Part shown: one piece after another, positions 10,181 through 59,391 of the stretch
How the letters are laid out: every line of letters starts with the position of its first letter
How positions within the stretch are numbered: the first letter of the stretch is position 1
DNA from: Candidatus Magasanikiibacteriota bacterium
GTDB taxonomy: Bacteria > Patescibacteriota > Patescibacteriia > Magasanikbacterales > UBA922
Reading direction: 5' to 3'
DNA: 64,000 nt
Assembly (NCBI GenBank): GCA_016207245.1
Contig: JACQQA010000005.1
Coordinates: 68-64,067, forward strand
The notes under the pieces: model-generated
The model's input: the letters and a program-made list of their open reading frames with translations, nothing else
The model's database searches: none
Told to the model about the DNA's origin: nothing
Translations under genes and position numbers: made by a program

Positions 10181-10261
10181 AAATGACAAATGTTAAATAC
10201 CAAATTTCAAATAAAATGTCCAAATGTAAAAATTTTTCATCTAGCATTCATCACAAATTTG

Positions 10262-10270
10262 TGCTACAAT
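10262..10270 (+). promoter_or_regulatory. extended -10 promoter (TGCTACAAT) for a leaderless mRNA
   Basis: TACAAT ends at 10270 and the ATG is at 10277, which puts the A of the ATG at the expected transcription start. Confidence 0.5.
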
Positions 10271-10276
10271 GTATTC

Positions 10277-11422
10277 ATGCTGAAAAAACTTCCGCGTAAA
10301 CAATCTAATGAAACAAGACTGCTGTACCTCCTCGCCTGGTTGGTTTTTTTGGTTGCGTTGGGTTTGCTTGGATGGTTTGGGTACGGTTATTTGTTGAATC
10401 GGAATCAAGCGGATTTTAACAACACGGTAGAAGGCGATGATTTTGCGCAATCCGGAACTGACTGCCAATATCGCCGTGTGTTAGATGGCATTTGTGTCGC
10501 CAGCGAAGAAGAAATTAATCCAAAATTAGTCGCGGTGATGGTTGAAAATCACGTTGACGCGCGGCCGCTATCCGGTTTAGCCGAGGCGAGTGTGGTTTAC
10601 GAAGCGCCGGTGGAAGCGAATTACACCCGCTTTCTTGCAATTTATCCGGCGAATGTTAAAGTGGATAAAATCGGGCCGGTCAGAAGCGCGCGACCCTACT
10701 ATTTAGACTGGCTGTCCGAATACGGCGACGCGATGTATATGCATGTCGGCGGTTCTCCGGAAGCGATTGTTTTAATAAAAGAATACAAATTATTTGATCT
10801 GAATGAATTTTATTTCGGCCGATATTATTGGCGCGCGCCAGATCGTTCGGCTCCGCATTATATTTATACTTCATCGGAATTGTGGAGCCGGGCGTTGGAT
10901 GATTATTCAGATGAGGATTTAGTGGCGAATTATGAGGGATGGGCGTTTTCCACTTCATCACCCTTCGGCTCTGCTCAGGGCAGGCCTGATCACACCATCA
11001 CAACATCACTTGGCGAGAGTGAGTTGGCGGCGAGTTTAAAAATAACATTTTTATCGCCGAATTATATTGTTGATTGGAAGTTTAACAGTTCAACAAAGAA
11101 ATACGACCGGTATCAGGGGGATGAATTGCAGAGAGATACGAGCGGTAAAAAAATTAAAGCGGATACATTGATAATTCAGCGCGTTAAAAGTTTGGTGATT
11201 GATGAAATCGGCCGGAAGAAAATCAATACTGTCGGCAGCGGCGAAGCGATGGTTTTTTATGACGGTCAAAAAATTGACGGAATTTGGAAAAAAGAAAATA
11301 GAAATGACAGGACGAGGTTTTATGACGCTATTGGCGAGGAAATAAAATTAAAACCGGGGAAGATTTGGGTGGAGGTGGTGGGGGGAGATAGCGTGGTGCT
11401 GAACAATCCTTCCCCCTCGTAG
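10277..11422 (+). CDS. DUF3048 domain-containing (YerB-like) protein
   Basis: VAVMVENHVDARPLSGLAEASVVYEAPVEANYTRFLAIY is the DUF3048 core, preceded by an N-terminal TM helix. Start set at 10277, just downstream of the -10 element at 10262-10270. The ORF carries in-frame repeat words at 10962-11010. Confidence 0.75.
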   Translation: MLKKLPRKQSNETRLLYLLAWLVFLVALGLLGWFGYGYLLNRNQADFNNTVEGDDFAQSGTDCQYRRVLDGICVASEEEINPKLVAVMVENHVDARPLSGLAEASVVYEAPVEANYTRFLAIYPANVKVDKIGPVRSARPYYLDWLSEYGDAMYMHVGGSPEAIVLIKEYKLFDLNEFYFGRYYWRAPDRSAPHYIYTSSELWSRALDDYSDEDLVANYEGWAFSTSSPFGSAQGRPDHTITTSLGESELAASLKITFLSPNYIVDWKFNSSTKKYDRYQGDELQRDTSGKKIKADTLIIQRVKSLVIDEIGRKKINTVGSGEAMVFYDGQKIDGIWKKENRNDRTRFYDAIGEEIKLKPGKIWVEVVGGDSVVLNNPSPS

Positions 11423-11473
11423 GCTTCGGCCATGAGCTCAGCCGAACGGGGGGAGGCGGGGAGGGGGTCTCAG
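11405..11473. repeat. G/C-run palindromic element; left inverted repeat of the DUF559 cassette
   Basis: ccttccccctcgtaggcttcggccatgagctcagccgaacggggggaggcggggagggggtctcag. The last ~24 nt are a near-exact inverted copy of 11898-11920. Confidence 0.7.
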
Positions 11474-11519
11474 CGAGTGAAAAAGCAATCAATCCGCATA
11501 AATAGACATCAGCTTTTTT

Positions 11520-11900
11520 ATGTTAGCAAAAACAGAACCAAAACTCCGCGATCGTTATCCAGAAAATGAACATCTAAAATATCGCCGTCGTTCTCTCCGC
11601 CACTCGTTAACAAAAGCAGAGACTACTCTGTGGCAATGGTTAAGAAAAAATAAAACCGGTTTTAGATTTCGCCGTCAAACAAGCATCGGTAAATATATTG
11701 TTGATTTTTATTGCCATCAATTAAAACTTATCATAGAAGTTGACGGCGGAATACACGAGGAACAAGTTGGATATGATAATAAAAGGGAAACGTGGCTGAA
11801 AGAACAAGGTTATAAGATTTTAAGATTTAAGAACGAGGATGTTATTTATAATCTACCTTTGGTGTTGAGTCAGATAAATAATTTTGTTAACAAAGGTTGA
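11520..11900 (+). CDS. DUF559 endonuclease-domain protein (Vsr-like fold)
   Basis: 126 aa. LTKAETTLWQWLRKNKTGFRFRRQTSIGKYIVDFYCHQLKLIIEVDGGIH...ILRFKNEDV. Confidence 0.8.
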   Translation: MLAKTEPKLRDRYPENEHLKYRRRSLRHSLTKAETTLWQWLRKNKTGFRFRRQTSIGKYIVDFYCHQLKLIIEVDGGIHEEQVGYDNKRETWLKEQGYKILRFKNEDVIYNLPLVLSQINNFVNKG

Positions 11901-11940
11901 GACCCCCTCCTACCTCCCCCTACGAGGGGGAGGGATTTGA
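11898..11940. repeat. G/C-run palindromic element; right inverted repeat of the DUF559 cassette
   Basis: tgagaccccctcctacctccccctacgagggggaggga. Its reverse complement matches 11448-11473. Confidence 0.7.
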
Positions 11941-30918: not shown

Positions 30919-31013
30919 ATATGTCCATTGAGTTTTCATGGTTCAAAATTATCAAGGCGTCTGATCGTTAGACAGGTATTTTAGTGCCCGCTAACTAATA
31001 TGGTCTCAAACCA

Positions 31014-31095
31014 GTCCCGTAGGGACGATAGATAGTAGCCAGGCCTTTTAAGGCCTGGGAACAGTTCATCACCAAAACAATAGCCCCGTAGGGGC
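31014..31095. repeat. cluster of REP-like GC hairpins
   Basis: gtcccgtagggac (31014-31026), ccaggccttttaaggcctgg (31039-31058) and gccccgtaggggc (31083-31095), immediately upstream of the transposase fragment. Confidence 0.65.
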
Positions 31096-36052: not shown

Positions 36053-37111
36053 ATGCGGAAATATTTTTTGCTGCTATCTGCATTCTGTATTCTGTCATTC
36101 GTCTGGTTTTTGTATTCCGAAATCTACACTGCCGAGGCGCAGAAGATTGATAGGTTGACATTTGAAGTTAAATCCGGCGAGAGCGTCGGGCAGTTAGCCG
36201 AGAGATTGGAAAGTGAGCGAGTAATCGGAAGCGCATGGCTGTTTAAAAAATATTTACGCTGGAAAAATTTGGATACGAAGATAAACATCGGCGAGTTTGA
36301 ATTAGTCGCGCCGATTACTCTGGCGCGAGTGGCCGATGTTTTGTCTCGGCCCGGGCTGAACGAGAGAGAGATTACAATTATTCCCGGCTGGACGATTCGC
36401 GACACCGCGCAATATTTTGAATCCAAAGGCATGTTTCAAGCCGAAGAGCTAACCGAATTAGTCGGCTTGCCGGCAGTGAGTTATAAAAATTGGAAAGAAG
36501 GCATACCCAAGTTAAATGTATATCCTTCGGCTTCGCTCAGGACAGGTCTGGAAATTTTGAAAGACAAACCGTGGTATGTCAGTTACGAAGGATATTTGGC
36601 GCCGGAAACTTACCGGATTTATAAAAACGCGAAACTGCAAGATATCGTTTTAAAATTAATCCAACAGCGCGAGTCGGAGATTACCGACGAGATGTGGCAG
36701 GAAATGGAAAAACAGCAGAAAAGTTTTTATGATATTTTAATCATGGCCAGCATTTTGGAACGCGAAGTAAAGTCAGAACAAGACAAACGTTTAGTCGCGG
36801 ATATTTTCTGGCGCCGGTATAAAAAAAACTGGGCTTTGCAGACGGATTCCACCGTACATTACGCGGTGAATAAAAGCGGGGAAATTTTTACCACTCCTGA
36901 AGACCGCGACAGTATTTCGCCGTGGAATACTTACAAATATCCCGGCTTGCCTCCCAGCCCGATTTCCAATCCGTCATTAGTGTCAATCAAGGCCGCGCTT
37001 TATCCGGAGAAAAATGATTATTGGTACTTTTTGACGACATCAGAGGGGGAAGTTAGATATGCGAGGACACTTGAAGAACACAACAAAAACAAAATTTATG
37101 TTAGCCAGTGA
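36053..37111 (+). CDS. mltG: endolytic murein transglycosylase MltG (YceG family)
   Basis: 352 aa. N-terminal TM helix, then YceG blocks ASILEREV, NTYKYPGLPPSPISNP and YFLT. Contains an in-frame ccttcggc..gctcaggacagg word at 36524-36548. Confidence 0.88.
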   Translation: MRKYFLLLSAFCILSFVWFLYSEIYTAEAQKIDRLTFEVKSGESVGQLAERLESERVIGSAWLFKKYLRWKNLDTKINIGEFELVAPITLARVADVLSRPGLNEREITIIPGWTIRDTAQYFESKGMFQAEELTELVGLPAVSYKNWKEGIPKLNVYPSASLRTGLEILKDKPWYVSYEGYLAPETYRIYKNAKLQDIVLKLIQQRESEITDEMWQEMEKQQKSFYDILIMASILEREVKSEQDKRLVADIFWRRYKKNWALQTDSTVHYAVNKSGEIFTTPEDRDSISPWNTYKYPGLPPSPISNPSLVSIKAALYPEKNDYWYFLTTSEGEVRYARTLEEHNKNKIYVSQ

Positions 37112-38348
37112 TTTTGATTACAATTTACCTTCCGAATTAATCGCGCAGACTCCGGCAAGTCCGCGCGATTCTTCGCGGTTGATGATTGTTGATAGAAAGA
37201 CCCTTCGGCAAGCTCAGGGTAAAGTAGAACACAAAATTTTTCATGACATTGCCGGTTATATTAAAAAGGGCGATTTGATTGTTTGGAACAATTCCAAAGT
37301 TTTTAAAGCCAGATTATTTGGCAAGCTAACTGACTTAAATAACAATGAATTGTTTGAACATAAAAAACCGATTGAAATATTTTTAATCAGACCAATGGAA
37401 AATGAAGGGGTGTGGAAAGTTTTGGCCAAGCCCGGCAAACATGTTAAGCCCGGCATGCGCGTGCGATTCGCGACGGATTTTTATTGTGACGTTGTTGTAA
37501 AAGAACCGAGCGGAGAGATTTTGGTTCAGTTTCCCCATTCGGCAAGCTCACTTCGTGGTGACTCAGTGGAACCAGGGCAAGCTACCAACGCGGAGACAGT
37601 GCGAGAAAAAGCGAATAAATACGGCCATATTCCGGTGCCGCCGTATATTAAAGACGAACCGCACGAATTAGAATCATATCAAACCGTTTACGCCAGACAC
37701 GAGGGCTCGGTCGCGGCGCCGACGGCCGGATTTCATTTTACGCCGGAGTTAATTCAGAAATTAAAAAACAAAGGCGTGGAGTTTGCCGAAATAACTTTGC
37801 ATGTCGGGCTTGGCACTTTTTTACCGGTCAAATCCGAACGGGTGGAAGATCACACTATGCATAGCGAGTGGGTGGAGTTGAGCGAGGGAAACGCGGAGAA
37901 GATTAATTTGGCGAAGAAAGAGGGGAGAAGAGTGGTGGCGGTGGGGACGACGACGGTGAGAACGTTGGAAGGCGTGGCCTTGTTTAAAGGGTTCTCCCCC
38001 TGCGAAGGGGGAGACAGAGGGGGTATTTTTCTCGCGCCTTGCGAACACCCCCCTTGTTCCCCCCTTCGTAGGGGGGAGACCCACGTATCACCATATAAAG
38101 GAGATATCAATCTCTTCATCACTCCCGGATTTGAATTTAAAATCGTTGACGCGATGATTACGAATTTTCATTTGCCGAAGTCAACCTTGCTGATGCTGGT
38201 TTCCGCCTTCGCCTCGTCGAAGCTCGGCTACGGCGTGACGCAGTCCGCGTTTGCGGGAGACAGGAAGTTTATGCTAGAATGTTATCAGAAAGCAGTGAAA
38301 GAAAAATATCGGTTTTATAGTTTTGGGGACGCGATGTTAATTAAGTAG
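37098..38348 (+). CDS. queA: S-adenosylmethionine:tRNA ribosyltransferase-isomerase QueA
   Basis: FDYNLPSELIAQTPASPRDSSRLM, AAPTAGFHFT, VGTTTVRTLE, ITNFHLPKSTLLMLVSAF and YRFYSFGDAMLI. ATG at 37098. Several in-frame repeat inserts. Confidence 0.92.
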   Translation: MLASDFDYNLPSELIAQTPASPRDSSRLMIVDRKTLRQAQGKVEHKIFHDIAGYIKKGDLIVWNNSKVFKARLFGKLTDLNNNELFEHKKPIEIFLIRPMENEGVWKVLAKPGKHVKPGMRVRFATDFYCDVVVKEPSGEILVQFPHSASSLRGDSVEPGQATNAETVREKANKYGHIPVPPYIKDEPHELESYQTVYARHEGSVAAPTAGFHFTPELIQKLKNKGVEFAEITLHVGLGTFLPVKSERVEDHTMHSEWVELSEGNAEKINLAKKEGRRVVAVGTTTVRTLEGVALFKGFSPCEGGDRGGIFLAPCEHPPCSPLRRGETHVSPYKGDINLFITPGFEFKIVDAMITNFHLPKSTLLMLVSAFASSKLGYGVTQSAFAGDRKFMLECYQKAVKEKYRFYSFGDAMLIK

Positions 38349-38355
38349 ATATTAT

Positions 38356-39156
38356 ATGCCCAGTAGAGAAGGCGGATTTTTTCACGATGCAGTGAATAAA
38401 CCAAATGGGATTGAGCAGCCAAAAGACAATTATCCGGATTTACACCCAAGACGCTCACCAGATGTGCTGGATGAAACGCTAAAATCAGAAAGCTTAGAAG
38501 TAAGACCGGTGAGTGAATATAAAGGCCGTGGCTTGTTTGCTCGCAAACCATTTAAAACCGGAGATTTGGTTTTTACTTTTGATGGTCGGAAAGAATTATT
38601 AGAAGGTGATCAAGATAATTTTTTTTCGATTTATGATGGCAGGTTTGTCGATGGAATCGTAGTTGGCGAAGAAAGTCAAAATTTTTTTGCGGCGGCGTTT
38701 AGTCATCCGGCAGCAGATAAATTTATTTGGGCCGTACCGGACGAAAACAGTCCGCTTCGTTGGGTTAATCATTCTTGCGAGCCAAATATCGCCAGGCACA
38801 TGAATGATGTTTTTACTTTTTTTGCCACTCGAAAAATTCCAAAAGGGAGTCAATTGACGGCTGATTATTCTTTGCTGGAATGCAACCCAAACTATGGGAT
38901 GAGGTGTTCGTGCGGTTCACAGAATTGCCGTCATAAAATTGAAGGCATTCCAGCTCTGCCGGCAGAATACATCGCCCGTCATTGGCAAAATCTTCCGCCG
39001 TTCATGCGGTGGCTGGTAGTTAACAAAGGTCAAGACGCTCGGATACGAAAGCTTTTTGACGAAAAGGGCGGGGACTATTTGTTTGATAATTTTTCCAGAT
39101 TGTTTTTGCCGAAAGGGACAGTGCCAAAAGGTCGCCAACTAAAAACTGAGGTTTAA
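38356..39156 (+). CDS. SET-domain protein (putative protein lysine methyltransferase)
   Basis: 266 aa. RGLFARKPFKTGDLV, NHSCEPN, QLTADY and a post-SET Cys cluster CSCGSQNCR. Starts 8 nt after the queA stop. Confidence 0.75.
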   Translation: MPSREGGFFHDAVNKPNGIEQPKDNYPDLHPRRSPDVLDETLKSESLEVRPVSEYKGRGLFARKPFKTGDLVFTFDGRKELLEGDQDNFFSIYDGRFVDGIVVGEESQNFFAAAFSHPAADKFIWAVPDENSPLRWVNHSCEPNIARHMNDVFTFFATRKIPKGSQLTADYSLLECNPNYGMRCSCGSQNCRHKIEGIPALPAEYIARHWQNLPPFMRWLVVNKGQDARIRKLFDEKGGDYLFDNFSRLFLPKGTVPKGRQLKTEV

Positions 39157-39830
39157 ACCCCAGTTTTTAGTTTTAAAGGGTTGAAGTCTGTATCTCTGTC
39201 ATAATAATCCACTTCTTCTTTCTTTTTCAACCAACCGACAACGCGATATGTGACTGGCAGGAGAATTATTTCCACCAGAATTTTGAAAATATAATTTGAT
39301 ACCCAGATAATCCAAATTAAATTCCACGGCAGGACGCCGGCGAAGGCGATGAGGAGAAAGACAGTGGTGTCAAAAAATTGGCCGACGACAGTTGAGCCAA
39401 TCGCTCGCAGCCAAAGAAATTTTCCCTGTGTTTTTATTTTTATCTTCGCCAACACATAACTGTTCAAAAATTCTCCGATTAAATACGCGCACAAACTTCC
39501 CAGCACGATTCTTGGCACCACGCCAAGGATTGATTCAAACGCGGCTTGATTACCCCAGTCCAGCGTCGGCGGGAGTTTTTGCACCACCCAGAAAGTAATC
39601 ACCATCAGCAAATTCATCGCGAAGCCGATCCAGATGACGCGCCGGGCGCGGGCGTAGCCATACACTTCGGTCAAGATATCGCCGAAGATGTAGGCGAGAG
39701 GAAATAAAATCGTCCCGCCGTCAAAACTGAACCAGCCGAGCGATAATATTTTTGTGCTGGCGATGTTTGATAAAATTAGCACAACAGCGAAAGCAGTGGT
39801 GATGAGATCGAGGTGTTTGTAGGGCTTCAT
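39153..39830 (-). CDS. yhhQ: queuosine precursor transporter (YhhQ/DUF165, VUT family)
   Basis: 225 aa, polytopic. FDGGTILFPLAYIFGDILTEVYGYARARRVIW. Confidence 0.85.
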   Translation of the reverse strand: MKPYKHLDLITTAFAVVLILSNIASTKILSLGWFSFDGGTILFPLAYIFGDILTEVYGYARARRVIWIGFAMNLLMVITFWVVQKLPPTLDWGNQAAFESILGVVPRIVLGSLCAYLIGEFLNSYVLAKIKIKTQGKFLWLRAIGSTVVGQFFDTTVFLLIAFAGVLPWNLIWIIWVSNYIFKILVEIILLPVTYRVVGWLKKKEEVDYYDRDTDFNPLKLKTGV

Positions 39831-39896
39831 ATTGCTAGATTGTTTAATTGTTATATTGCTAAATTGTTATGCGGATTATAGCATAATTTGTCCGGG

Positions 39897-39925
39897 TTGA
39901 CAAACAGGGTAAAATGTGGTATAAT
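39897..39925 (+). promoter_or_regulatory. perfect consensus sigma70 promoter (TTGACA-17-TATAAT)
   Basis: TTGACA at 39897-39902, a 17-nt spacer, TATAAT at 39920-39925. Confidence 0.75.
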
Positions 39926-39955
39926 ATATTCATTAATACAGCTAAAATCAAAAAT

Positions 39956-40378
39956 ATGGACAGATTTCATAATGAATGGGGGGAAGCAAAAAATTTTAGA
40001 AGCAGAAAACATGGGGAATCGGATTATGTGCCGGTGGAGGAGATACCGGACGAAGGTAATGACCCGGAAAGTTTGTTAATCGCGCGAGAAGAAAACACGG
40101 ATAAGTTGCTTGAAGAGAGCGGGGGATTAATTGGTAAAAAAGTTGCAGACATAGGAGATGAAAAGAGTGAGACGGAAGAAGGTGGGGGCGGGGGTTATGA
40201 TTTGGAGGAAACCGCCCAATCCAGCAAGCCAGGCGTTGGTTTGCGGAAAGCCGCGGCATTAGAGGGCTTGGAGGGCGGAGTTAAAAAACGCAGAAAAGCA
40301 GATTCAGAAAGAAGAGGTAAGGGCGCAAAATTGAATAAACCGGCGAGAGACAGGAGAGAACTTCAAAAAGCGGCTTAG
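39956..40378 (+). CDS. hypothetical, predicted-disordered acidic/basic protein
   Basis: The ORF listed from 39914 begins upstream of the predicted transcription start, so the ATG at 39956 is preferred. Low-complexity E/G/K-rich sequence. Confidence 0.4.
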   Translation: MDRFHNEWGEAKNFRSRKHGESDYVPVEEIPDEGNDPESLLIAREENTDKLLEESGGLIGKKVADIGDEKSETEEGGGGGYDLEETAQSSKPGVGLRKAAALEGLEGGVKKRRKADSERRGKGAKLNKPARDRRELQKAA

Positions 40379-40401
40379 TTTTATTTTTTAAAATTATTTA
40401 T

Positions 40402-40791
40402 ATGCCAGGAGATATTATTGAGGGTGGTGGAGGAGAAAAAATAAAAAAAGGAGAAGAAGCGAGGGAAGCTTATCTTGCCGCTATTAAAAAATATAATTGC
40501 CCCATTAGTAGCGAAAAGGATTATAAAGTAGAAAATGCTTTTGGGGAGCTCATGGCGCTGTTAGAAGGAAAGAACTCTTTGCTGTTGCAAGATTTATTTT
40601 ATAATAAGAATGACTTTTCAAGCGATAAAGATTGGGAGGTTGGGTTGCTGAAACAAGTAATTTATGATTTACAGCAAGCGTTGGGCAAAGTAGAGAAAAA
40701 AGTAGAAGATTCATCCGTTCGCTCTGTTTTTAGTGAGCGAGTAGAGGCAGTGAAGGATATTATTAAAGCGTTGGAAATGTTGTGTGAGTAA
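40402..40791 (+). CDS. hypothetical protein
   Basis: 129-aa ORF co-oriented with the previous ORF. No recognised domain. Confidence 0.4.
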   Translation: MPGDIIEGGGGEKIKKGEEAREAYLAAIKKYNCPISSEKDYKVENAFGELMALLEGKNSLLLQDLFYNKNDFSSDKDWEVGLLKQVIYDLQQALGKVEKKVEDSSVRSVFSERVEAVKDIIKALEMLCE

Positions 40792-40838
40792 TTGTTAAAA
40801 AATTAATCTCGGCTTAGGTCGGGATTTTTTGTCGTCAA

Positions 40839-42092
<1,254 letters not shown>

Positions 42093-43726: not shown

Positions 43727-45793
43727 ATGCCAAATTACGAGGCGGAATTAAATCAAGAACAATTAAACGCGGTGCGGAACGCTGACGGGCCGTGTTTGGT
43801 TTTGGCCGGCGCCGGCAGCGGCAAGACGCGGACGATCACTTACCGCGCGGCATATTTGTTGGAGCGGGGTATTAGTCCTGAAAATATTTTGTTAGTTACT
43901 TTTACCAATAAAGCGGCGAGAGAGATGATTGAGAGGGTGCAGATAAAATTGCCATGGTCCGGGACGTTTCATCATATCGCCTACAGAGTATTAAAGAAAT
44001 ATTGTTCGTTCTTGGGATATAAAAGCAATTTTTCGGTTTTGGATAGTGATGACAGCGCAAATTTAATTAAGCAGTGTTTAAAAGACGAAGGTGTTGATCG
44101 GACACTGCGGCGTTTTCCGTCCCCCACGGTTTTGCAGTCAATCATCAGCTACGCGCGAAATTCGCAAACATCTATTGACGACGCGCTGGATCTAAAACAT
44201 CCGCATTTCGCGCCGCTCGCGGACACGATCAAAAGCATCGCGGGGAATTATGCCAAAAGAAAATTAGCCGCGAATGCGATGGATTTTGATGATTTGCTGG
44301 TTAATTGGCTGAAATTACTGGAACAATCAGAAAAGATTAGGCAAAAACACCAAGAACAATTCCAATATATTTTGGTTGATGAATATCAGGACACTAATAA
44401 AATTCAAGCGTCAATCATCCGTTTGATCGCCGCGAAGCACCACAACTTGTTTGTTGTCGGCGACGACGCGCAGAGCATCTACAGTTTTCGCGCGGCCGAG
44501 ATTAAAAATATTTTGGATTTTGAGAAAGAATATCCCCGCCTCTCCGGCGGGCAGGCCGGCGCGAAGATTTTTCGTTTGGAAACCAACTATCGTTCCACAC
44601 CGGAGATTTTGAGTTTGGCAAATGACATAATTTCCAATAACATTAATCAATATCAAAAAGAATTGAAGAGTGTGCAAGAAAAATTTGTTCGTCCGGAAGT
44701 CCATTCATTTGACACCAACGAAGAAGAAGCGGTTGCTATCGCCGTCCGAGTGGAAGAATTGTTGGGCGAGGGAGTGGAACCGAAAGACATCGCGGTTTTA
44801 TTCCGCGCCGCGCATCATTCGCAAGCGCTGGAAATGGAACTGATGAAGCGCGGCATCGCTTATGATTACCGCGGCGGCGCGCGGTTTTTTGAACGCGCGC
44901 ACGTCAAAGATGTTCTGGCCTATTTGCGGATATTGAATAATCAAACAGATGAGATCGCTTGGCGACGGGTTTTAAATATGCAAGTGGGGATTGGAGAGAT
45001 GGTGGCTGGACGGATTATTGCGGAGGTGGCAACTCACCCCCCAACCCCCTCTCTTGACAAGAGAGAGGGGGGCGATGGCGGGGGTGAGTTTGGCGTGGTT
45101 GGGTTGCCGGCGAAGGCGCAGGCGGGGTGGAATGATTTTTTGCAGATTTTTCGGCCTTTGCAAAACGCGGCCGGCGCGGAAATTGGGGATTTAATTAGGA
45201 TTATCATGGAAGGCAAGTATGCCGAATATTTGGAAAATGAATATCCGGATTATCGGGAGCGGTTGCAGGATCTGGAGCAGTTGGCGAAATTCGCGGACAA
45301 TGCCGAGGATTTGGATCAATTTTTGGCCGAATCCAGTTTGCAGGAGGGATTTCGGGGGATCGCCGCCGTAGAGACGCACAGCAGTGCGTCTCTACGGCGC
45401 GGCGAAAAAATTATTTTATCCACCATTCACCAAGCCAAAGGTTTAGAGTGGCAGGCGGTATTTATTATCAATGTTTCCGACGGGCAATTTCCCAATGACC
45501 GCGCGATGCGTGAGGATAATGGAATAGAAGAAGAGCGCCGGTTGTTTTATGTGGCGGTAACGCGCGCGAAAAAACATCTGCAAATCAGTTATTTATTATC
45601 AGGAAATTTCGGCGGTTCAATCGGCGGTCCGAGTTTGTTTGTCAATGAAATCAATAAAAATTTAGTTGACGCGGATTTGCGCGGAGCGGTGTTTAACAAT
45701 GATAAAACAGAAGAAATTATTTATATTGACGAAGAAAAACCAAAACGGCAGTTTCGTCCGGGGAGTTTTTTGCGGGGAGTTGATGAGTTGTAG
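43727..45793 (+). CDS. UvrD/PcrA/Rep family ATP-dependent DNA helicase
   Basis: 688 aa. Motif I AGAGSGKT, VDEYQDTN, VGDDAQSIYSFRAA, TNYRS, TIHQAKGLEW and YVAVTRAK. Contains a 60-nt palindromic in-frame insert. Confidence 0.9.
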   Translation: MPNYEAELNQEQLNAVRNADGPCLVLAGAGSGKTRTITYRAAYLLERGISPENILLVTFTNKAAREMIERVQIKLPWSGTFHHIAYRVLKKYCSFLGYKSNFSVLDSDDSANLIKQCLKDEGVDRTLRRFPSPTVLQSIISYARNSQTSIDDALDLKHPHFAPLADTIKSIAGNYAKRKLAANAMDFDDLLVNWLKLLEQSEKIRQKHQEQFQYILVDEYQDTNKIQASIIRLIAAKHHNLFVVGDDAQSIYSFRAAEIKNILDFEKEYPRLSGGQAGAKIFRLETNYRSTPEILSLANDIISNNINQYQKELKSVQEKFVRPEVHSFDTNEEEAVAIAVRVEELLGEGVEPKDIAVLFRAAHHSQALEMELMKRGIAYDYRGGARFFERAHVKDVLAYLRILNNQTDEIAWRRVLNMQVGIGEMVAGRIIAEVATHPPTPSLDKREGGDGGGEFGVVGLPAKAQAGWNDFLQIFRPLQNAAGAEIGDLIRIIMEGKYAEYLENEYPDYRERLQDLEQLAKFADNAEDLDQFLAESSLQEGFRGIAAVETHSSASLRRGEKIILSTIHQAKGLEWQAVFIINVSDGQFPNDRAMREDNGIEEERRLFYVAVTRAKKHLQISYLLSGNFGGSIGGPSLFVNEINKNLVDADLRGAVFNNDKTEEIIYIDEEKPKRQFRPGSFLRGVDEL

Positions 45794-50804: not shown

Positions 50805-52313
50805 ATGATATTTCAAACAAAGAGAATTGATTTAGAATCCACTCTCTGTTTTTTTCTAAAGAGCTTCTTATTCCTGTTTCCTTGGCAGACGATCTGGATT
50901 TATCGCGAGATTTTCGTTAACGGAGTGAAAATGGAATACGCGACACTGGGTTTTTATGCGACGGAGATTTTGTTGTGGGCGGCGGTTTTGTTGTTTATTG
51001 TTTGGTACTGGAAAAAATGGAAAAGGGAAAAATCAAAATGGAAAATACGATTTCGGTTGACCAAAGATAGGATTTTCATCACCGCGTGTTTATCTCTTAT
51101 CTCTTATCTTTTTATCTCCATTGTTTGGTCTCCGGATAAATCTTTGGCTTTACAGCAATCTTTGCGCGTCATGGAAGCGTTCCTGTTGTTTTTTATATTC
51201 ACTCTCGGCCCACTGAAGTTCAACGAGGCGGTGAAGTGGTTGGCTTTGGGCGCGGTTCTGCCGAGCATGTTGGGCATTTGGCAGTTTTTTTCTCAATCAA
51301 CTTTCGCTTTCAAGTGGTTGGGGTTGGCCGAGCATATTGTCTCAAACCCGGGCGCTTCGGTGATTGTCGGGGATGAAATCGGCCGTTGGCTAAGGTCGTA
51401 TGGGCCGTTCGCGCATCCGAATGTGTTGGGGGGATATGCGGCTATGGTAATTGTTTTGATGCTGCTAAAATTAAAAGACTGTAAGGCTTGTCCTGAGCAG
51501 AGCCGAAGGACTGAAAGATTACCATTTTATTTATTTATCTCTTATCTTTTATCTCTTATCTTTATTATTTCCGTTATTTTTTTCTCTTTCAGCCGGTCGG
51601 CGTTGTTGGCCTTGATAATTATTATATTGTTAAATTGTTATATTGTTTTTAAACAGAAAAAATTTTCTTATCTTCCTTCGGCTGCCCTCGATTCCCCTCG
51701 GGACGGGTCGCTCAGGACAAGCCTATCTCTTATCTCCTGCCTGATTTTACCAATTATTATTCTATCCGTTCTTTTATTCCCCGCGCTGAAGACTCGTGTC
51801 ACCGTGTCTTCCTCGTATGAAGTCGCTTCGGTTGTCGAACGCGCGCAAGGATTTAACGAGGGTTGGGAAATTTTTAAAGACAACAAATGGCTCGGAGTCG
51901 GCGCCGGGAATTATATCGCGTATTTGCAAAAAATTGACCCGGATCGCCAATCGTGGGAATACCAGCCGGTACATAACGCGGGTTTACTCTTACTTGCAGA
52001 AATGGGGCTATTTGGCGTGGCGTTATTGTTTTTTGTTTTGTTATCTCTTATCTCTTTTCTCTTTTCTCTTGTTACGAATCAGGAATCACAGGTTGACGCG
52101 TGTAAGCGTAGTAGGAAAATCACTGTGTTCTGTTATCTGCCTGCCCGCCATCGGCTGCGCCATCAGGTGCTGGCAGGCGGGTGTTCTGTATTCTGCTATT
52201 TCGTCCTCGCTTTCTTTGATCACTATTTAATTTCATCATACACCGGATTGATTCTAACCGGTATTTTCTTTGGTTTGGCATTAAAACACAGTCGGGAAGT
52301 TGTCCCCAGTTAA
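50805..52313 (+). CDS. O-antigen ligase / Wzy_C family membrane protein
   Basis: 502 aa, polytopic. FSRSALLAL and HNAGLLLLAEMGLFG blocks. Carries several in-frame repeat words. Confidence 0.75.
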   Translation: MIFQTKRIDLESTLCFFLKSFLFLFPWQTIWIYREIFVNGVKMEYATLGFYATEILLWAAVLLFIVWYWKKWKREKSKWKIRFRLTKDRIFITACLSLISYLFISIVWSPDKSLALQQSLRVMEAFLLFFIFTLGPLKFNEAVKWLALGAVLPSMLGIWQFFSQSTFAFKWLGLAEHIVSNPGASVIVGDEIGRWLRSYGPFAHPNVLGGYAAMVIVLMLLKLKDCKACPEQSRRTERLPFYLFISYLLSLIFIISVIFFSFSRSALLALIIIILLNCYIVFKQKKFSYLPSAALDSPRDGSLRTSLSLISCLILPIIILSVLLFPALKTRVTVSSSYEVASVVERAQGFNEGWEIFKDNKWLGVGAGNYIAYLQKIDPDRQSWEYQPVHNAGLLLLAEMGLFGVALLFFVLLSLISFLFSLVTNQESQVDACKRSRKITVFCYLPARHRLRHQVLAGGCSVFCYFVLAFFDHYLISSYTGLILTGIFFGLALKHSREVVPS

Positions 52314-57729: not shown

Positions 57730-58371
57730 ATGCAGATATTAAAATTAGATAGTTTGGATTTTTCTGATGTTGTTGAAAAATTAAGAAACGGTTTTACGAT
57801 TGTCTATCCAACGGAAACCTGCTATGGTTTGGGTTGCGACGCGAGGAATAACGAAGCGGTGGAGAAAGTGGCGAAAATAAAACAGCGCCCGCCTTCGTCC
57901 AGATTTGGTCAGGACTGCGGCGTGGCAAGCAAGCCGTTTTTGGTGGTGGTTCCTGACGCGGCGATGGCTTTGCGGTATTTAGAATGGAGTCCGAAACTGC
58001 AAGAGTTAGCGGATAAGTATTGGCCCGGAGCTCTTACGATTGTCGCGCTCGCCAAGGATAACTGCGGTTTAGCGTCCGGAGTGGTTGCGGCTGACGGCAC
58101 CGTCGCTTTCCGCGTTACCAGTCATCCGATTGCCGCGCGATTGAGCCGTGAATTAGACGCGCCGTTGGTATCCACTTCCGCCAACATTTCCGGACAAGAA
58201 CAGCCATACAGCGTTGAAGCGGTTCAGCGATATTTTGCCAGTCAGCCAAACCAGCCGGATATTATTATTGACGCCGGCGAATTGCCGCAACGCGCGCCGT
58301 CAACGATTGTGAGAGTGGTGGATGGGAAAGTGGAGGTGGTGAGAGAGGGAGAAGTCGTGGTTAATTTTTAA
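57730..58371 (+). CDS. tsaC: L-threonylcarbamoyladenylate synthase (TsaC/YrdC family)
   Basis: 213 aa. YPTETCYGLGCDA, KPFLVVV, LTIV, STSANISG. Probable repeat-derived insert RPPSSRFGQDCGVAS. Confidence 0.85.
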   Translation: MQILKLDSLDFSDVVEKLRNGFTIVYPTETCYGLGCDARNNEAVEKVAKIKQRPPSSRFGQDCGVASKPFLVVVPDAAMALRYLEWSPKLQELADKYWPGALTIVALAKDNCGLASGVVAADGTVAFRVTSHPIAARLSRELDAPLVSTSANISGQEQPYSVEAVQRYFASQPNQPDIIIDAGELPQRAPSTIVRVVDGKVEVVREGEVVVNF

Positions 58372-58386
58372 TTTGTAAATCAATTA

Positions 58387-58465
58387 TCTCCCCTCTCGGA
58401 GAGGGGCAGGGGGTGTGTTCACGTGATACGCCAGCACCTCCCTCGCCCTCCTCCGAGGAGGGAAT
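58387..58465. repeat. two G/C palindromic modules shared with 3989-4090
   Basis: tctcccctctcggagaggggcagggggtgtg and cacctccctcgccctcctccgaggagggaat are each the reverse complement of a module inside the 2571-6254 ORF. Confidence 0.8.
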
Positions 58466-58482: not shown

Positions 58483-59391
58483 ATGTTAGATATAACCAAA
58501 CCTTCTGTTTTGCAAGAACTTTGTAAGCAATACAGGCTTACCCCATCCAAGGGCTATGGTCAGAATTTTTTGATTACCGACGCGCCGATTAAAAAGATGA
58601 TTGAAGCCGCGGAATTAAAAGCGAGCGACATCGTCGTTGAAATTGGGCCCGGGTTTGGCGTGTTGACGTTCGCGTTGGCGGAGAGAGTGAAGAAAGTGAT
58701 AGCGTTTGAGATAGAGAGGAAGTTGGCGGGATATTGGAGCGACTTGGAGATAAGAGGAGATAGGGAGATAAATAGAGATAAAATTGAGATAGTGTGGGGT
58801 AACGCGCTTAATAAGATACAAGATACAAGTAACAAGATACAAAAATACAAGGTGATTGCGAATTTGCCGTATCAGATCACTTCTGATGTATTGCGGACGT
58901 TGTTAGAGCTGGAAAACAAGCCGGAGCTAATCGTCATTATGGTTCAGAAAGAAGTGGCGGAGAGAATTTGCGCTCAGCCCCCTTCGGCTCGCCATACTCG
59001 CTCAGGGCAGGCAGGCAACATGAGTCTGTTGTCAGTCGCGGTGCAGTATTATGGGGAGCCAAAGATTATTGCCAAAGTACCGGCCGGGAGTTTTTGGCCG
59101 AGACCGAAAGTGGAGAGCGCGATTGTGCGAATCACTTTATCACGTGATCACTGCATCACCACATCACTACATCACGACGACGAGAGAGAAAGAGAATTTT
59201 TTAGAGTTGTTAGAGCTGGGTTCGCGCAAAAGAGGAAACAGTTGTGGAATAATTTGGCGAAGGGATTAAAATTGGACGGCGGCAAAGTTAAGGCGGTTTT
59301 GCGCGAGGTGGTGGGAAATGAGAAAGTGAGGGCGGAGGAGGTGAGTGTTGAGGAGTGGAGAGTGATAGTTGGAAAGTTAGAAAGTTTTTAA
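58483..59391 (+). CDS. rsmA: 16S rRNA (adenine1518/1519-N6)-dimethyltransferase RsmA/KsgA
   Basis: GQNFL, VVEIGPGFGVLT and NLPYQITS. ATG at 58483. Contains at least three repeat-word inserts. Confidence 0.9.
   Translation: MLDITKPSVLQELCKQYRLTPSKGYGQNFLITDAPIKKMIEAAELKASDIVVEIGPGFGVLTFALAERVKKVIAFEIERKLAGYWSDLEIRGDREINRDKIEIVWGNALNKIQDTSNKIQKYKVIANLPYQITSDVLRTLLELENKPELIVIMVQKEVAERICAQPPSARHTRSGQAGNMSLLSVAVQYYGEPKIIAKVPAGSFWPRPKVESAIVRITLSRDHCITTSLHHDDEREREFFRVVRAGFAQKRKQLWNNLAKGLKLDGGKVKAVLREVVGNEKVRAEEVSVEEWRVIVGKLESF

Follow-up and report, generated by a model that had tools for sequence, protein, structure and literature searches.

RPEs (Ogata et al. 2000), as outlined in PMC10969869, are about 100–150 bp long, are specific to Rickettsia and are described as coding for a conserved peptide in each family. 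REPINs consist of two inverted short palindromes around a less conserved spacer and form one long hairpin; their singlets are decayed remnants, and they are almost wholly extragenic, with 14 of 1,067 16-mers overlapping genes (PMC3116915, PMC3337134). We analyzed a 64,000-nt stretch of DNA from a Candidatus Magasanikiibacteriota bacterium (contig JACQQA010000005.1, positions 68 to 64,067; hereafter, the window), in which repeats resembling both systems in part were found inside protein-coding genes.

Organellar GC clusters and double-hairpin elements are reportedly present in fungal mitochondria, as Paquin et al. in 2000 and the yeast GC-cluster work are said to have described. Free-standing homing endonuclease genes with a Vsr fold exist as the I-Bth0305I family. 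DUF559, to which one gene of the window belongs, is a family of very many members and no assigned function; to our knowledge, it is not known as a transposase. Literature searches on the Candidate Phyla Radiation (CPR) with MITE, REP or palindromic elements, and on DUF559, found no prior description. In the searchable literature, we found neither activity data for DUF559 nor a report of selfish DNA lodged within protein-coding genes for CPR.

Four extra stretches in queA

The gene was assigned as queA with Pfam PF02547 (E = 4.3e-120), and the match spanned the full profile (2–322 of 322). The solved structure PDB 1vky matched the protein at E = 1.3e-87 in sequence comparison. An earlier AlphaFold run with 36 close orthologues gave a pLDDT of 56 and was unusable, so AlphaFold was rerun with 139 diverse sequences in the alignment. 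The resulting AlphaFold 2 model had a pLDDT of 89.2 and a pTM of 0.89, and it matched 1vky, 1yy3 and 1wdi with E values of 1e-27 to 1e-32. All 20 columns that were invariant across 139 sequences (query included) were kept, and the ORF had no internal stop codon. A protein identical to the query was present in an NCBI Candidatus Magasanikbacteria MAG, and tgt and a Vut_1/YhhQ-type transporter gene were located within 4 kb. We infer that the insert-bearing QueA is active. The gene is best read as a working housekeeping gene whose apparent colonization by small, GC-rich repeats took place at the level of DNA.

Compared with 125 diverse QueA proteins, the query had four GC-rich extra stretches of 5, 16, about 30 and 14 aa. 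The insert columns were filled in at most 3–24 of these 125 representatives, and QueA of T. maritima, B. subtilis and T. thermophilus lacked all four inserts. In the model, all inserts were located between secondary-structure elements, and low pLDDT was found at the inserts only. The queA features are as follows.

37098–38348, + strand: queA CDS, 416 aa plus stop; ORF intact and core fold kept
37201–37223, + strand: site 1, family-C motif CCTTCGGCAAGCTCAGGGTAAA; net insert of 15 nt at 37203–37217 by codon alignment with orthologues
37539–37586, + strand: site 3, 48-nt composite insert SASSLRGDSVEPGQAT by codon alignment with orthologues
37989–38082, + strand: site 5, palindromic family-B element of 94 nt
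37993–38014: H1 of the family-B element, TCTCCCCCTGCGAAGGGGGAGA
38019–38024 and 38047–38052: H2 arms of the family-B element
38058–38077/8: H3 of the family-B element
38202–38243, + strand: site 6, 42-nt orphan insert SAFASSKLGYGVTQ, between helices 363–373 and 382–401

A first-pass annotation had proposed that queA is interrupted in frame at four places by repeat modules, including a double hairpin. The ORF of 417 codons, the peptide and both hairpins were located as it had described, except that the first hairpin starts one base before the proposed 37994–38015. Orthologues and structures differed in length from the query at all four sites, the reverse of the equal lengths that would speak against insertion. 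Dispersed repeat families that have other copies within the window account for three of the four inserts; the SSKLGYGVTQSAFAG insert at site 6 is an orphan, for which no second copy was found. The queA inserts are DNA-level elements, not protein modules. Judging from the intact frames, they are presumably translated, and the predicted QueA peptides include GFSPCEGGDR and GGIFLAPCEHPPCSPLR.

Site 1 was read as T-LRQAQ-GK and lies in a beta-hairpin turn between strands 27–31 and 43–47 of the model. Family C had already been recognized there, at 37202–37224. Among Magasanikbacteria queA genes, this insert was restricted to the window, L001, L087/P0010 and variants. Site 3 consists of the family-C unit TCGGCAAGCTCA..GGGCAAGCT, in a frame different from that of site 1, and a second family-C-like stretch of 24 nt, CTTCGTGGTGACTCAGTGGAACCA, is nested within it at 37551–37574. 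The family-C nature of site 3 was absent from the first-pass annotation. Only the 24-nt form (HSASSGQA) was present in L002/L082, and site 3 was absent from most orthologues. It lies in a coil between strand 141–144 and helix 165–175 of the model (pLDDT 58). The site-5 peptide, FSPCEGGDRGGIFLAPCEHPPCSPLRRGETH, sits between GTTTVRTLE and FITPGFEFK and forms a predicted disordered, Pro/Gly-rich loop (pLDDT 46–47) between helix 284–295 and strand 333–337.

The site-6 insert had a GC content of 0.69, compared with 0.44 in the rest of queA. An imperfect direct repeat of 12 nt, TCCGCCTTCGCC (38202–38213) and TCCGCGTTTGCG (38244–38255), brackets this insert, and among 94 Magasanikbacteria queA genes the insert was seen in the window only. 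Since the window and the 80 loci searched yielded no second copy, it was treated as an insert but not as a demonstrated repeat. An orphan insertion or duplication is its best explanation. It fits no repeat family, which counts against a single repeat account. A further extra stretch, aa 81–88 (NNNELFEH), is AT-rich and lineage-conserved and is not a repeat.

Repeat families and the DUF559 cassette

A GC-spike scan of the window gave 152 regions and was too unspecific, so hairpin and motif scans were adopted. C-run/G-run hairpins exceeded chance, numbering 7 in the window and 0.10 in composition-preserving shuffles. The 24-nt family-C motif occurred in three frames, both orientations and five genes, with the readings LRQAQG, SASS..GQA, PSAGSGQ, FGSAQGR and PSASLRTG. 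The pattern scan detected 8 copies in Magasanikbacteria DNA versus 0.1 in shuffles, and 0 copies in non-Magasanikbacteria loci. All 7 family-C copies of the window were inside ORFs. The pair at 10962–10987 and 51484–51509 (reverse complement) shared 92% identity. The copies of both families outside queA are as follows.

36526–36544, + strand: family-C copy in the neighboring mltG/yceG gene, read as PSASLRTG
3917–3934, 3941–3958, 10964–10982 and 51489–51507 (the last on the − strand): other family-C copies
3966–4098, − strand: second copy of family B, within LTD-domain ORF 2556–6254, in frame and in the orientation opposite to the queA copy
58388–58465, − strand: third family-B copy, intergenic between tsaC/sua5 (ends at 58371) and ksgA (probable ATG at 58483)

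The four insertions, described earlier as remarkable for one gene, are present in queA, but such stretches were also found in mltG, tgt, uvrD/pcrA, a DUF3048 gene, a Wzy-like gene and the large LTD-domain ORF of the same window. Those of queA are thus the extreme case of a tendency across the genome and do not set this gene apart.

An exact and near-exact search with the queA hairpin matched only the hairpin itself, and family B was recognizable only by architecture and consensus. The Rfam search of the element matched no family and gave only sub-threshold, miRNA-like long-hairpin hits. The inverted arms of the queA element were 39 nt long and 77% complementary. At site 5, a 104-nt fold formed one long hairpin with an MFE of −67.4 kcal/mol and a z of −7.3. 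With a 91-nt trim of the element, the three-stem fold was 9.4 kcal/mol weaker (−50.7 vs −60.1). Compared with 58388–58465 in reverse complement, the copy at 3966–4098 showed identities of 89% and 95%, and the folds of these two copies had z values of −5.2 and −5.7, respectively. The LTD-domain ORF stays open across its copy. Family-B lengths ranged from 76 to 131 nt, and two of the three full copies of the window were in ORFs.

MAFFT alignment of the family-B copies showed register shifts, so the stems were tabulated sequence by sequence. The H1–H2–H3 plan was common to 13 full-length orthologous copies, of which 11 were tabulated. H1 and H3 stems were perfect over 5–9 bp (7–9 bp in 10 of the 11), and loop length varied from 4 to 38 nt. 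In the tabulated copies, the inner pairs of H2 covaried (TCT/AGA, TCCA/TGGA, TGTT/AACA, TTT/AAA and TC/GA).

A longer unit of the window carries a gene between similar hairpins.

11408–11933, + strand: full-length unit of 527 nt with a DUF559 gene in the central loop (ORF 11520–11900, 126 aa)
11408–11456: cassette H1, with a nested family-C-like hairpin at 11420–11447
11460–11472: cassette H2 5' arm, GGAGGGGGTCTCA
11898–11910: cassette H2 3' arm, TGAGACCCCCTCC, containing the DUF559 stop codon
11913–11933: cassette H3

The ORF matched Pfam DUF559 (PF04480) at E = 1.9e-36, a Vsr-like PD-(D/E)XK nuclease, and its protein keeps the invariant residues D62, E73 and H79 and the near-invariant D75. 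The H2 stem that spans the ORF was perfect over 13 bp. The family-B element in queA has the same ends as this cassette, in the order H1, linker, G-run ... C-run, linker, H3. These shared ends of the double hairpin and the cassette were absent from the first-pass annotation. Identities between queA-element ends and cassette ends were 65–84% over 63–76 nt, values that are inflated by the low complexity of C/G-run sequences; the queA copy was closer to another cassette than to that of the window itself (68%).

All 10 of the CPR DUF559 genes inspected, which came from Magasanikbacteria, a Logan contig, Portnoybacteria and Moranbacteria, had this layout, as did one gene of Anabaena. These 11 genes had a hairpin and G-run upstream (where DNA was available) and a C-run and hairpin directly after the stop codon, which lay inside the H2 3' arm in each of them. 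Partial fits were an Anaerolineae gene, with the upstream part only, and a variant in Mangrovimonas. The cassette arms varied between lineages, and their complementarity was kept. Hairpin density was 36 per 30 kb at DUF559 loci, 57 per 637 kb at Magasanikbacteria queA loci and 0 per 206 kb at non-Magasanikbacteria loci.

Turnover and origin of the inserts

Insert presence was patchy among the 94 Magasanikbacteria queA genes. Relatives with 86–94% core-protein identity had unrelated inserts in the same QueA loop; the site-5 loop in close relatives was occupied by unrelated palindromes, and many site-5 inserts of relatives were palindromes of tandem heptamers. Turnover in this loop is fast. When the same element occupied the same queA site, its reading frame varied between orthologues. 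Solo-hairpin remnants were observed in L008 and L011/L086, with flanks resembling full copies in L004/L089 and L002/L082, and such solo hairpins represent decay forms. Four-fold sites of queA were near saturation (0.33–0.43 identity), while the element stems were kept. The queA frame was open and stop-free, with a net length that was a multiple of three, in 57 of 57 first-set genes and in 94 distinct proteins combined.

The nearest relative in the genome and metagenome scans had about 74–75% whole-protein identity and 86% over core columns. Because no relative exceeded about 74–75%, no recent empty-site/filled-site pair was obtained in these scans. No transposition event was seen, nor any pair of empty and filled sites from near-identical genomes. 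By eye, no target-site duplication was seen beside the family-B copies or DUF559 cassettes inspected, and their flanks tended to prolong the palindrome.

Probably, queA was colonized by repeats, the 94-nt element being a gene-less derivative of the DUF559 cassette and sites 1 and 3 being family C. The element would be a non-autonomous palindrome, in which two inverted C-run/G-run hairpin units of about 20 nt surround a central stem. Because its ends equal those of the DUF559 cassette, it was read as a MITE- or REPIN-like deletion derivative, which would have landed in a QueA surface loop. Sites 1 and 3 would be copies of the 24-nt family-C repeat. In-gene copies would survive only when they keep the frame, are free of stops and lie in a tolerant loop. 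The C-run/G-run design would favor survival: most of the six frames are open (3–5 in the inserts) and the runs encode Pro-/Gly-rich peptides, so that the inserts would be translated as disordered loops.

We infer that the elements are mobile, and the DUF559 nuclease may mobilize them by acting in trans on the hairpin ends. Full transposition by a lone 126-aa nuclease is unlikely. The association could also mean that the hairpin elements were there first and that DUF559 genes insert into them or become trapped by them. More tentatively, and with somewhat less than an even chance, DUF559 genes may be the core of widespread, undescribed selfish elements with C-run/G-run hairpin ends, which shed gene-less double-hairpin derivatives that spread through genomes and come to rest, in frame, in essential genes like queA. 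Their range would include CPR along with cyanobacteria; Chloroflexi may belong to it on partial evidence.

It is rather unlikely that these are REP/REPIN-type repeats moved by another enzyme, of the RAYT or IS200/IS605 type and encoded at another place in the genome, in which case DUF559 genes would just be common passengers or favored landing sites in the central loop. No RAYT was present among the window genes scanned (part of the window), the DUF559 ORF had a constant position with its stop in the H2 3' arm, and the arms were lineage-variable yet complementary, as expected of one co-evolving unit. For such an enzyme speak the doublet with a spacer, the compensatory spacer changes and the solo remnants, which are exactly REPIN features (PMC3116915), the poor candidacy of a 126-aa nuclease for a complete transposase, and nested insertion in hairpin loops (family C in H1 at 11420–11447; L123). 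The hairpins might instead be selected nucleic-acid signals and not selfish, serving for example in RNase III cleavage, pausing, supercoiling or recombination. Their stem conservation far exceeds the neutral divergence of the host gene queA, the predicted hairpin is very stable, and roles have been reported for REP elements of other bacteria (PMC3733652). However, the hairpins are patchy even in close relatives and replaced by unrelated palindromes, their copies lie in either orientation, both within and between genes and at no constant position relative to them, and decayed solo forms exist; we consider this explanation improbable. We give a similarly slim chance to a local origin without a mobile element, in which a fragile and permissive loop would have gained the inserts through slipped replication, template switching or short duplications. 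Site 6, unique and flanked by its imperfect repeat, the tandem-heptamer palindromes of relatives and an internal near-duplication within site 3 are consistent with it. Local mutation fails for families B and C because their copies are dispersed at unlinked loci with 89–95% identity and their consensus is kept across genomes with saturated synonymous sites.

That the extra stretches are adaptive, lineage-specific loops serving QueA function in CPR is very improbable. They are in frame, surface-exposed and kept in an apparently functional gene, and the aa 81–88 stretch is conserved across the lineage; but most close orthologues lack the four GC-rich inserts, frames differ between lineages, the DNA is identical to intergenic copies and the peptides are predicted to be disordered. 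We find it hardly credible that the inserts are untranslated, being excised from transcripts or bypassed by ribosomes like intervening sequences or mitochondrial bypass elements, given the open, stop-free frames with lengths in multiples of three in the 57 first-set genes and 94 distinct proteins. A −67 kcal/mol hairpin would be a strong obstacle for translation, and Lang et al. in 2014 reportedly described GC-rich palindromic bypass elements in a yeast mitochondrion. Inteins, introns and bypass elements were rejected as candidates because no added Pfam domains and no Rfam intron hits were found and all queA copies were in frame and stop-free. An assembly artefact was also rejected because in-frame inserts recurred in independent assemblies.

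Comparison with described elements

Colonization of queA by repeats would provide a DNA-level explanation for many short, odd, low-complexity insertions in CPR proteins. Such insertions inflate protein length, break profile alignments and mislead annotation; HMMER splits QueA and TGT at their inserts. Selfish DNA residing within protein-coding genes would be extended from Rickettsia to CPR, and DUF559 would gain a testable role as a nuclease tied to hairpin repeats, like RAYTs with REPINs. With its hypervariable loop, QueA offers a natural experiment in the insertion tolerance of a conserved enzyme. If DUF559 genes are indeed the core of such selfish elements, the pairing would be a counterpart of REPIN-RAYT systems with another enzyme fold, and it would supply CPR proteomes with Pro/Gly-rich loop insertions.

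Homing genes, too, are selfish units that are patchily distributed and carry nothing but a small nuclease gene. Homing copies into one cognate site, whereas gene-less short derivatives are found here at many unrelated sites. The fungal GC clusters share with the present elements GC-rich hairpins or double hairpins in AT-rich genomes, spread through intergenic and coding DNA and in-frame residues; they differ in being organellar and unrelated in sequence, with no DUF559 gene reported. Like MITEs, the elements are small and non-coding, have inverted termini in common with a longer gene-bearing element and are occasionally fused in frame with host ORFs (PMC10969869). Unlike MITEs, they showed no target-site duplication, and their putative partner has no recognized transposase.

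The likeness to RPEs, compared by description, lies in dispersed palindromes of an AT-leaning reduced genome, which occur in frame and at surface positions in unrelated housekeeping and other protein genes and add fold-compatible peptides without a transposase of their own. In contrast to RPEs, family B is 76–131 nt and family C about 24 nt long, several frames are used, the host belongs to CPR and the ends are those of a DUF559 cassette. The frame-dependent peptides argue against the conserved-peptide design of RPEs.

With REPINs, the elements share inverted units with a spacer, one long hairpin, compensatory changes in the spacer stem and singlet remnants. They differ from REPINs in that they are often located in ORFs (two of the three full family-B and all seven family-C copies in the window). 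As in REPIN-RAYT systems, a single small enzyme gene is flanked by the repeats, but this gene is DUF559, both here and in the 12 further cases inspected, and not a Y1/HUH tyrosine transposase. These results suggest a little-known kind of selfish DNA that may persist within protein-coding genes. By analogy, its behavior can be likened to that of RPEs and REPINs, with a different associated enzyme.

Inserts in the loops of an intact QueA

The product of the ORF 37098-38348 (+) is 416 aa long. The QueA profile PF02547 covered it end to end (E 4.3e-120), and it matched solved QueA structures (1vky, E 1.3e-87). An identical protein is recorded from a Candidatus Magasanikbacteria MAG (a CPR/Patescibacteria bacterium). 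The neighbours of queA are a SET-domain gene, a Vut_1/YhhQ-type transporter gene (39153-39830, -) and tgt, and the cluster spans 37098-42086. It looks like a predicted queuosine-salvage neighbourhood, consistent with a queuosine precursor being salvaged in a reduced genome, which argues that queA is in use. The gene was intact in all 94 distinct Magasanikbacteria queA genes sampled from GTDB genomes and JGI metagenomes.

The first-pass annotation had described four in-frame inserts in queA, including a double hairpin. HMMER alignments to three crystal-structure sequences opened gaps at exactly the places proposed, confirming the inserts. When 125 diverse QueA representatives were aligned with the query, five of its stretches fell in columns occupied by few of them.

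Low-occupancy stretches of the query QueA, with highest column occupancy and, for the GC-rich inserts, position in the AlphaFold model
Residues 35-39 (site 1), TLRQA, 4/125; beta-turn between strands 27-31 and 43-47
Residues 81-88, NNNELFEH, 7/125
Residues 148-163 (site 3), SASSLRGDSVEPGQAT, 6/125; coil from strand 141-144 to helix 165-175
Residues 303-322 (site 5; low-occupancy run about 296-324), EGGDRGGIFLAPCEHPPCSP, 24/125; coil from helix 284-295 to strand 333-337
Residues 372-385 (site 6), ASSKLGYGVTQSAF, 3/125; link of helices 363-373 and 382-401

The stretch at residues 81-88 was AT-rich and kept in most Magasanikbacteria orthologues, marking it as a normal trait of the lineage. G+C content was 58-69% in the remaining four, against 44% for the rest of queA and 44% for the window. 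The AlphaFold model (139 sequences; pLDDT 89.2, pTM 0.89) matched 1vky, 1yy3 and 1wdi. Its confidence fell at the inserts only, and all four GC-rich inserts were located between secondary-structure elements. These inserts are DNA elements rather than protein modules.

Sites 1 (ACC CTT CGG CAA GCT CAG GGT AAA) and 3 (CAT TCG GCA AGC TCA ... GGG CAA GCT) shared the motif TTCGGCAAGCTCAGGG, read in different frames. The 24-nt family C motif is CCTTCGGC-n3/4-GCTCAGGGCAGG. Site 5 holds family B, a palindromic double-hairpin element with parts H1, H2 (the central stem) and H3.

Family C and family B copies in the window
3917, 3941, 10964, 37204: family C
36526-36544: family C in mltG/yceG (36053-37111), directly upstream of queA; in-frame reading PSASLRTG
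37539: family C, split copy
51489 (-): family C
37989-38082: family B in queA, 94 nt
3966-4098: family B, opposite orientation, in frame in a large LTD-domain ORF
58388-58465: family B in the tsaC-ksgA spacer

All family C copies in the window lay within ORFs, together using three frames and both strands. Eight copies were found in Magasanikbacteria DNA versus 0.1 in shuffles, and none in queA loci of other bacteria. The 94-nt family B element folded as a single long hairpin (-67.4 kcal/mol, z -7.3). For a 91-nt trim, three adjacent stem-loops were weaker by 9.4 kcal/mol (-50.7 vs -60.1). The long fold can form because each outer hairpin is able to pair with the other one as well as with itself. 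No Rfam family matched the element. The 3966-4098 and 58388-58465 copies were 89-95% identical to each other. Compared with the latter, the ends of 3966-4098 are arranged outward, the right end coming first and the left end 45 nt later; this could represent a pair of solo ends or a junction that has been permuted. C-run/G-run hairpins numbered 7 in the window versus 0.10 in shuffles. Magasanikbacteria queA loci had 57 over 637 kb, and those of other bacteria none over 206 kb. At least two families of small GC-rich repeats are present, in coding as well as non-coding DNA.

The interpretation of the inserts as repeats was supported except at site 6. No further copy of that insert (38202-38243) turned up in the window or among the 80 loci compared. 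An imperfect direct repeat of 12 nt flanks it, and of the 94 genes the window's alone has the site filled. It was treated as an orphan insertion or duplication.

Turnover among Magasanikbacteria orthologues

The queA inserts were patchy among the 94 orthologues. Site 1 was filled only in the window, two relatives' loci (L001 and L087) and a few variants, and site 3 only in the window, L002/L082 (24-nt form) and L092. About ten other sequences carried another hairpin insert of 30 nt, a few codons downstream of site 6. This insert follows SAFxGD (RLAGRSPSEG and similar; AGACTTGCCGGCCGAAGCCCTAGCGAAGGACGG; loci L007, L009, L017, L019, L026, L032, L036, L057 and others) and was present or absent among close relatives.

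The site-5 loop varied from 10 to 54 residues. It contained family B in 13 sequences, solo-hairpin remnants in L008, L011/L086, L005 and L093, and unrelated palindromes of tandem heptamers in others. Within one clade whose core proteins were 86-94% identical, its content was wholly different. In the family B copies the H1 and H3 stems paired without mismatch over 5-9 bp, reaching 7-9 bp in 10 of 11 tabulated copies. A central H2 stem was also kept, and loop length varied from 4 to 38 nt. Inner H2 pairs covaried (GGGGTCT/AGACCCC, GGGGTCCA/TGGACCCC, GGGGGTGTT/AACACCCCC and GGGGTTT/AAACCCC), and the frame through the element differed by lineage (LPLSGG, SPYQGE, SPCEGG). Host four-fold sites between these lineages were only 0.33-0.43 identical, indicating that the stems are preserved, or formed anew, at the level of nucleotide sequence. 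The repeats use any frame or orientation, turn over fast and decay to solo hairpins.

A DUF559 nuclease cassette with family B termini

The unit at 11408-11933 looks like the full-length form of family B.

Parts of the DUF559 unit, 11408-11933
5' side: H1 with a nested family-C-like hairpin; G-run arm GGAGGGGGTCTCA; 47-nt leader; 126-aa ORF
3' side: arm TGAGACCCCCTCC, whose TGA is the ORF stop codon; H3 CCTCCCCCTacgAGGGGGAGG

Across 425 nt, its H2 arms can pair over 13 bp without a mismatch, placing the gene in the central loop of the palindrome. The ORF product belongs to DUF559 (PF04480, E 1.9e-36) and retains the invariant residues of this family of Vsr-like PD-(D/E)XK nucleases. The DUF3048-domain gene 10190-11422 has its last four codons (PSPS) and TAG stop, at 11408-11422, inside H1, so the element appears to have supplied its C-terminus.

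The same hairpin layout surrounded 10 of 10 CPR DUF559 genes examined (among them four in queA loci, and genes from two other Magasanikbacteria genomes with different neighbourhoods, a Logan contig, Portnoybacteria and Moranbacteria). Outside CPR, the Anabaena azotica gene had the full arrangement, the Anaerolineae gene the upstream part only, and the Mangrovimonas gene a variant with direct, not inverted, flanking units. Arm sequences differed by lineage and complementarity was kept. Several database DUF559 proteins extend into PPLTPPLKGGE-like tails, which are translated hairpins, and hairpin density in DUF559 loci was 36 per 30 kb. The ends of the queA-site elements and the cassettes had the same order of parts and 65-84% identity over 63-76 nt, figures inflated by low complexity. 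Family B thus shares its termini with DUF559 cassettes, and MITEs are usually assigned to their parents on such shared ends.

We infer that family B may be a non-autonomous derivative of the cassette, on which the DUF559 nuclease may act in trans. Hairpin or cruciform ends would then serve as the recognition feature, much as proposed for REP hairpins and RAYTs (PMC3116915). Within genes, selection would purge copies that shift the frame, add a stop codon or disturb structured parts of the protein. With C-runs and G-runs, 3-5 of six frames stay open and the residues encoded are Pro, Gly, Ser and Arg, so in-frame loop copies would be nearly neutral and would build up in tolerant loops, site 5 being one. 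With the DUF559 connection, what was a curiosity becomes a hypothesis that can be tested, on a large family of unknown function.

Repeats elsewhere in the window and known systems

The insert phenomenon is genome-wide, not specific to queA. Compared with Z. mobilis TGT, tgt (40839-42086, -) has two extra stretches, one of 29 aa (about 41697-41783; AACAATT-type heptamer repeats and a family-C-like piece) and one of 13 aa (aa 322-334). One extra stretch was found in mltG and at least one in the uvrD/pcrA-like helicase gene (43727-45793), which has two strong hairpins (45045-45071 and 45364-45399). One, of the C/G-run type, coincides with a 7-aa stretch that is extra compared with PcrA; the second has a perfect 16-bp stem (z -7.1) and encodes AVETHSSASLRR.

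Further repeats were observed. An intergenic 88-nt palindrome (6804-6890) has arms of tandem GCGAAAT-like heptamers, a design also seen in many site-5 inserts of relatives (L001, L053, L100, L118 and others). Perfect or near-perfect 24-29-nt matches in unrelated genes (3634-3657 with 36075-36098, reverse complement; 3731-3759 with 58815-58843) are built from heptamers of the CAGAATA and CAAGATA types and form another class of dispersed repeat. Two identical tandem 30-nt units (TCTGGGTTCCCGCTTTCGCGGGAATGACAA), each with a hairpin, lie at 60412-60478. The sole Rfam match above gathering score in the window was Acido-Lenti-1 RNA at 31013-31058 (-; 45.9 bits, E 3e-7).

GC clusters and double-hairpin elements of fungal mitochondria are analogues, as are the small dispersed repeats of cyanobacteria. 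Among open-access papers, none was found that dealt with such repeats in CPR bacteria or tied DUF559 to repeats or mobility. Family B differs from classical MITEs in that no target-site duplication was seen. Its architecture is similar to that of REPINs with their RAYT (PMC3116915, PMC3337134), but the gene between the repeats encodes no Y1 transposase, and extragenic copies do not predominate. Rickettsia palindromic elements also enter housekeeping genes in frame and are compatible with the fold (PMC10969869); the likeness is one of function.
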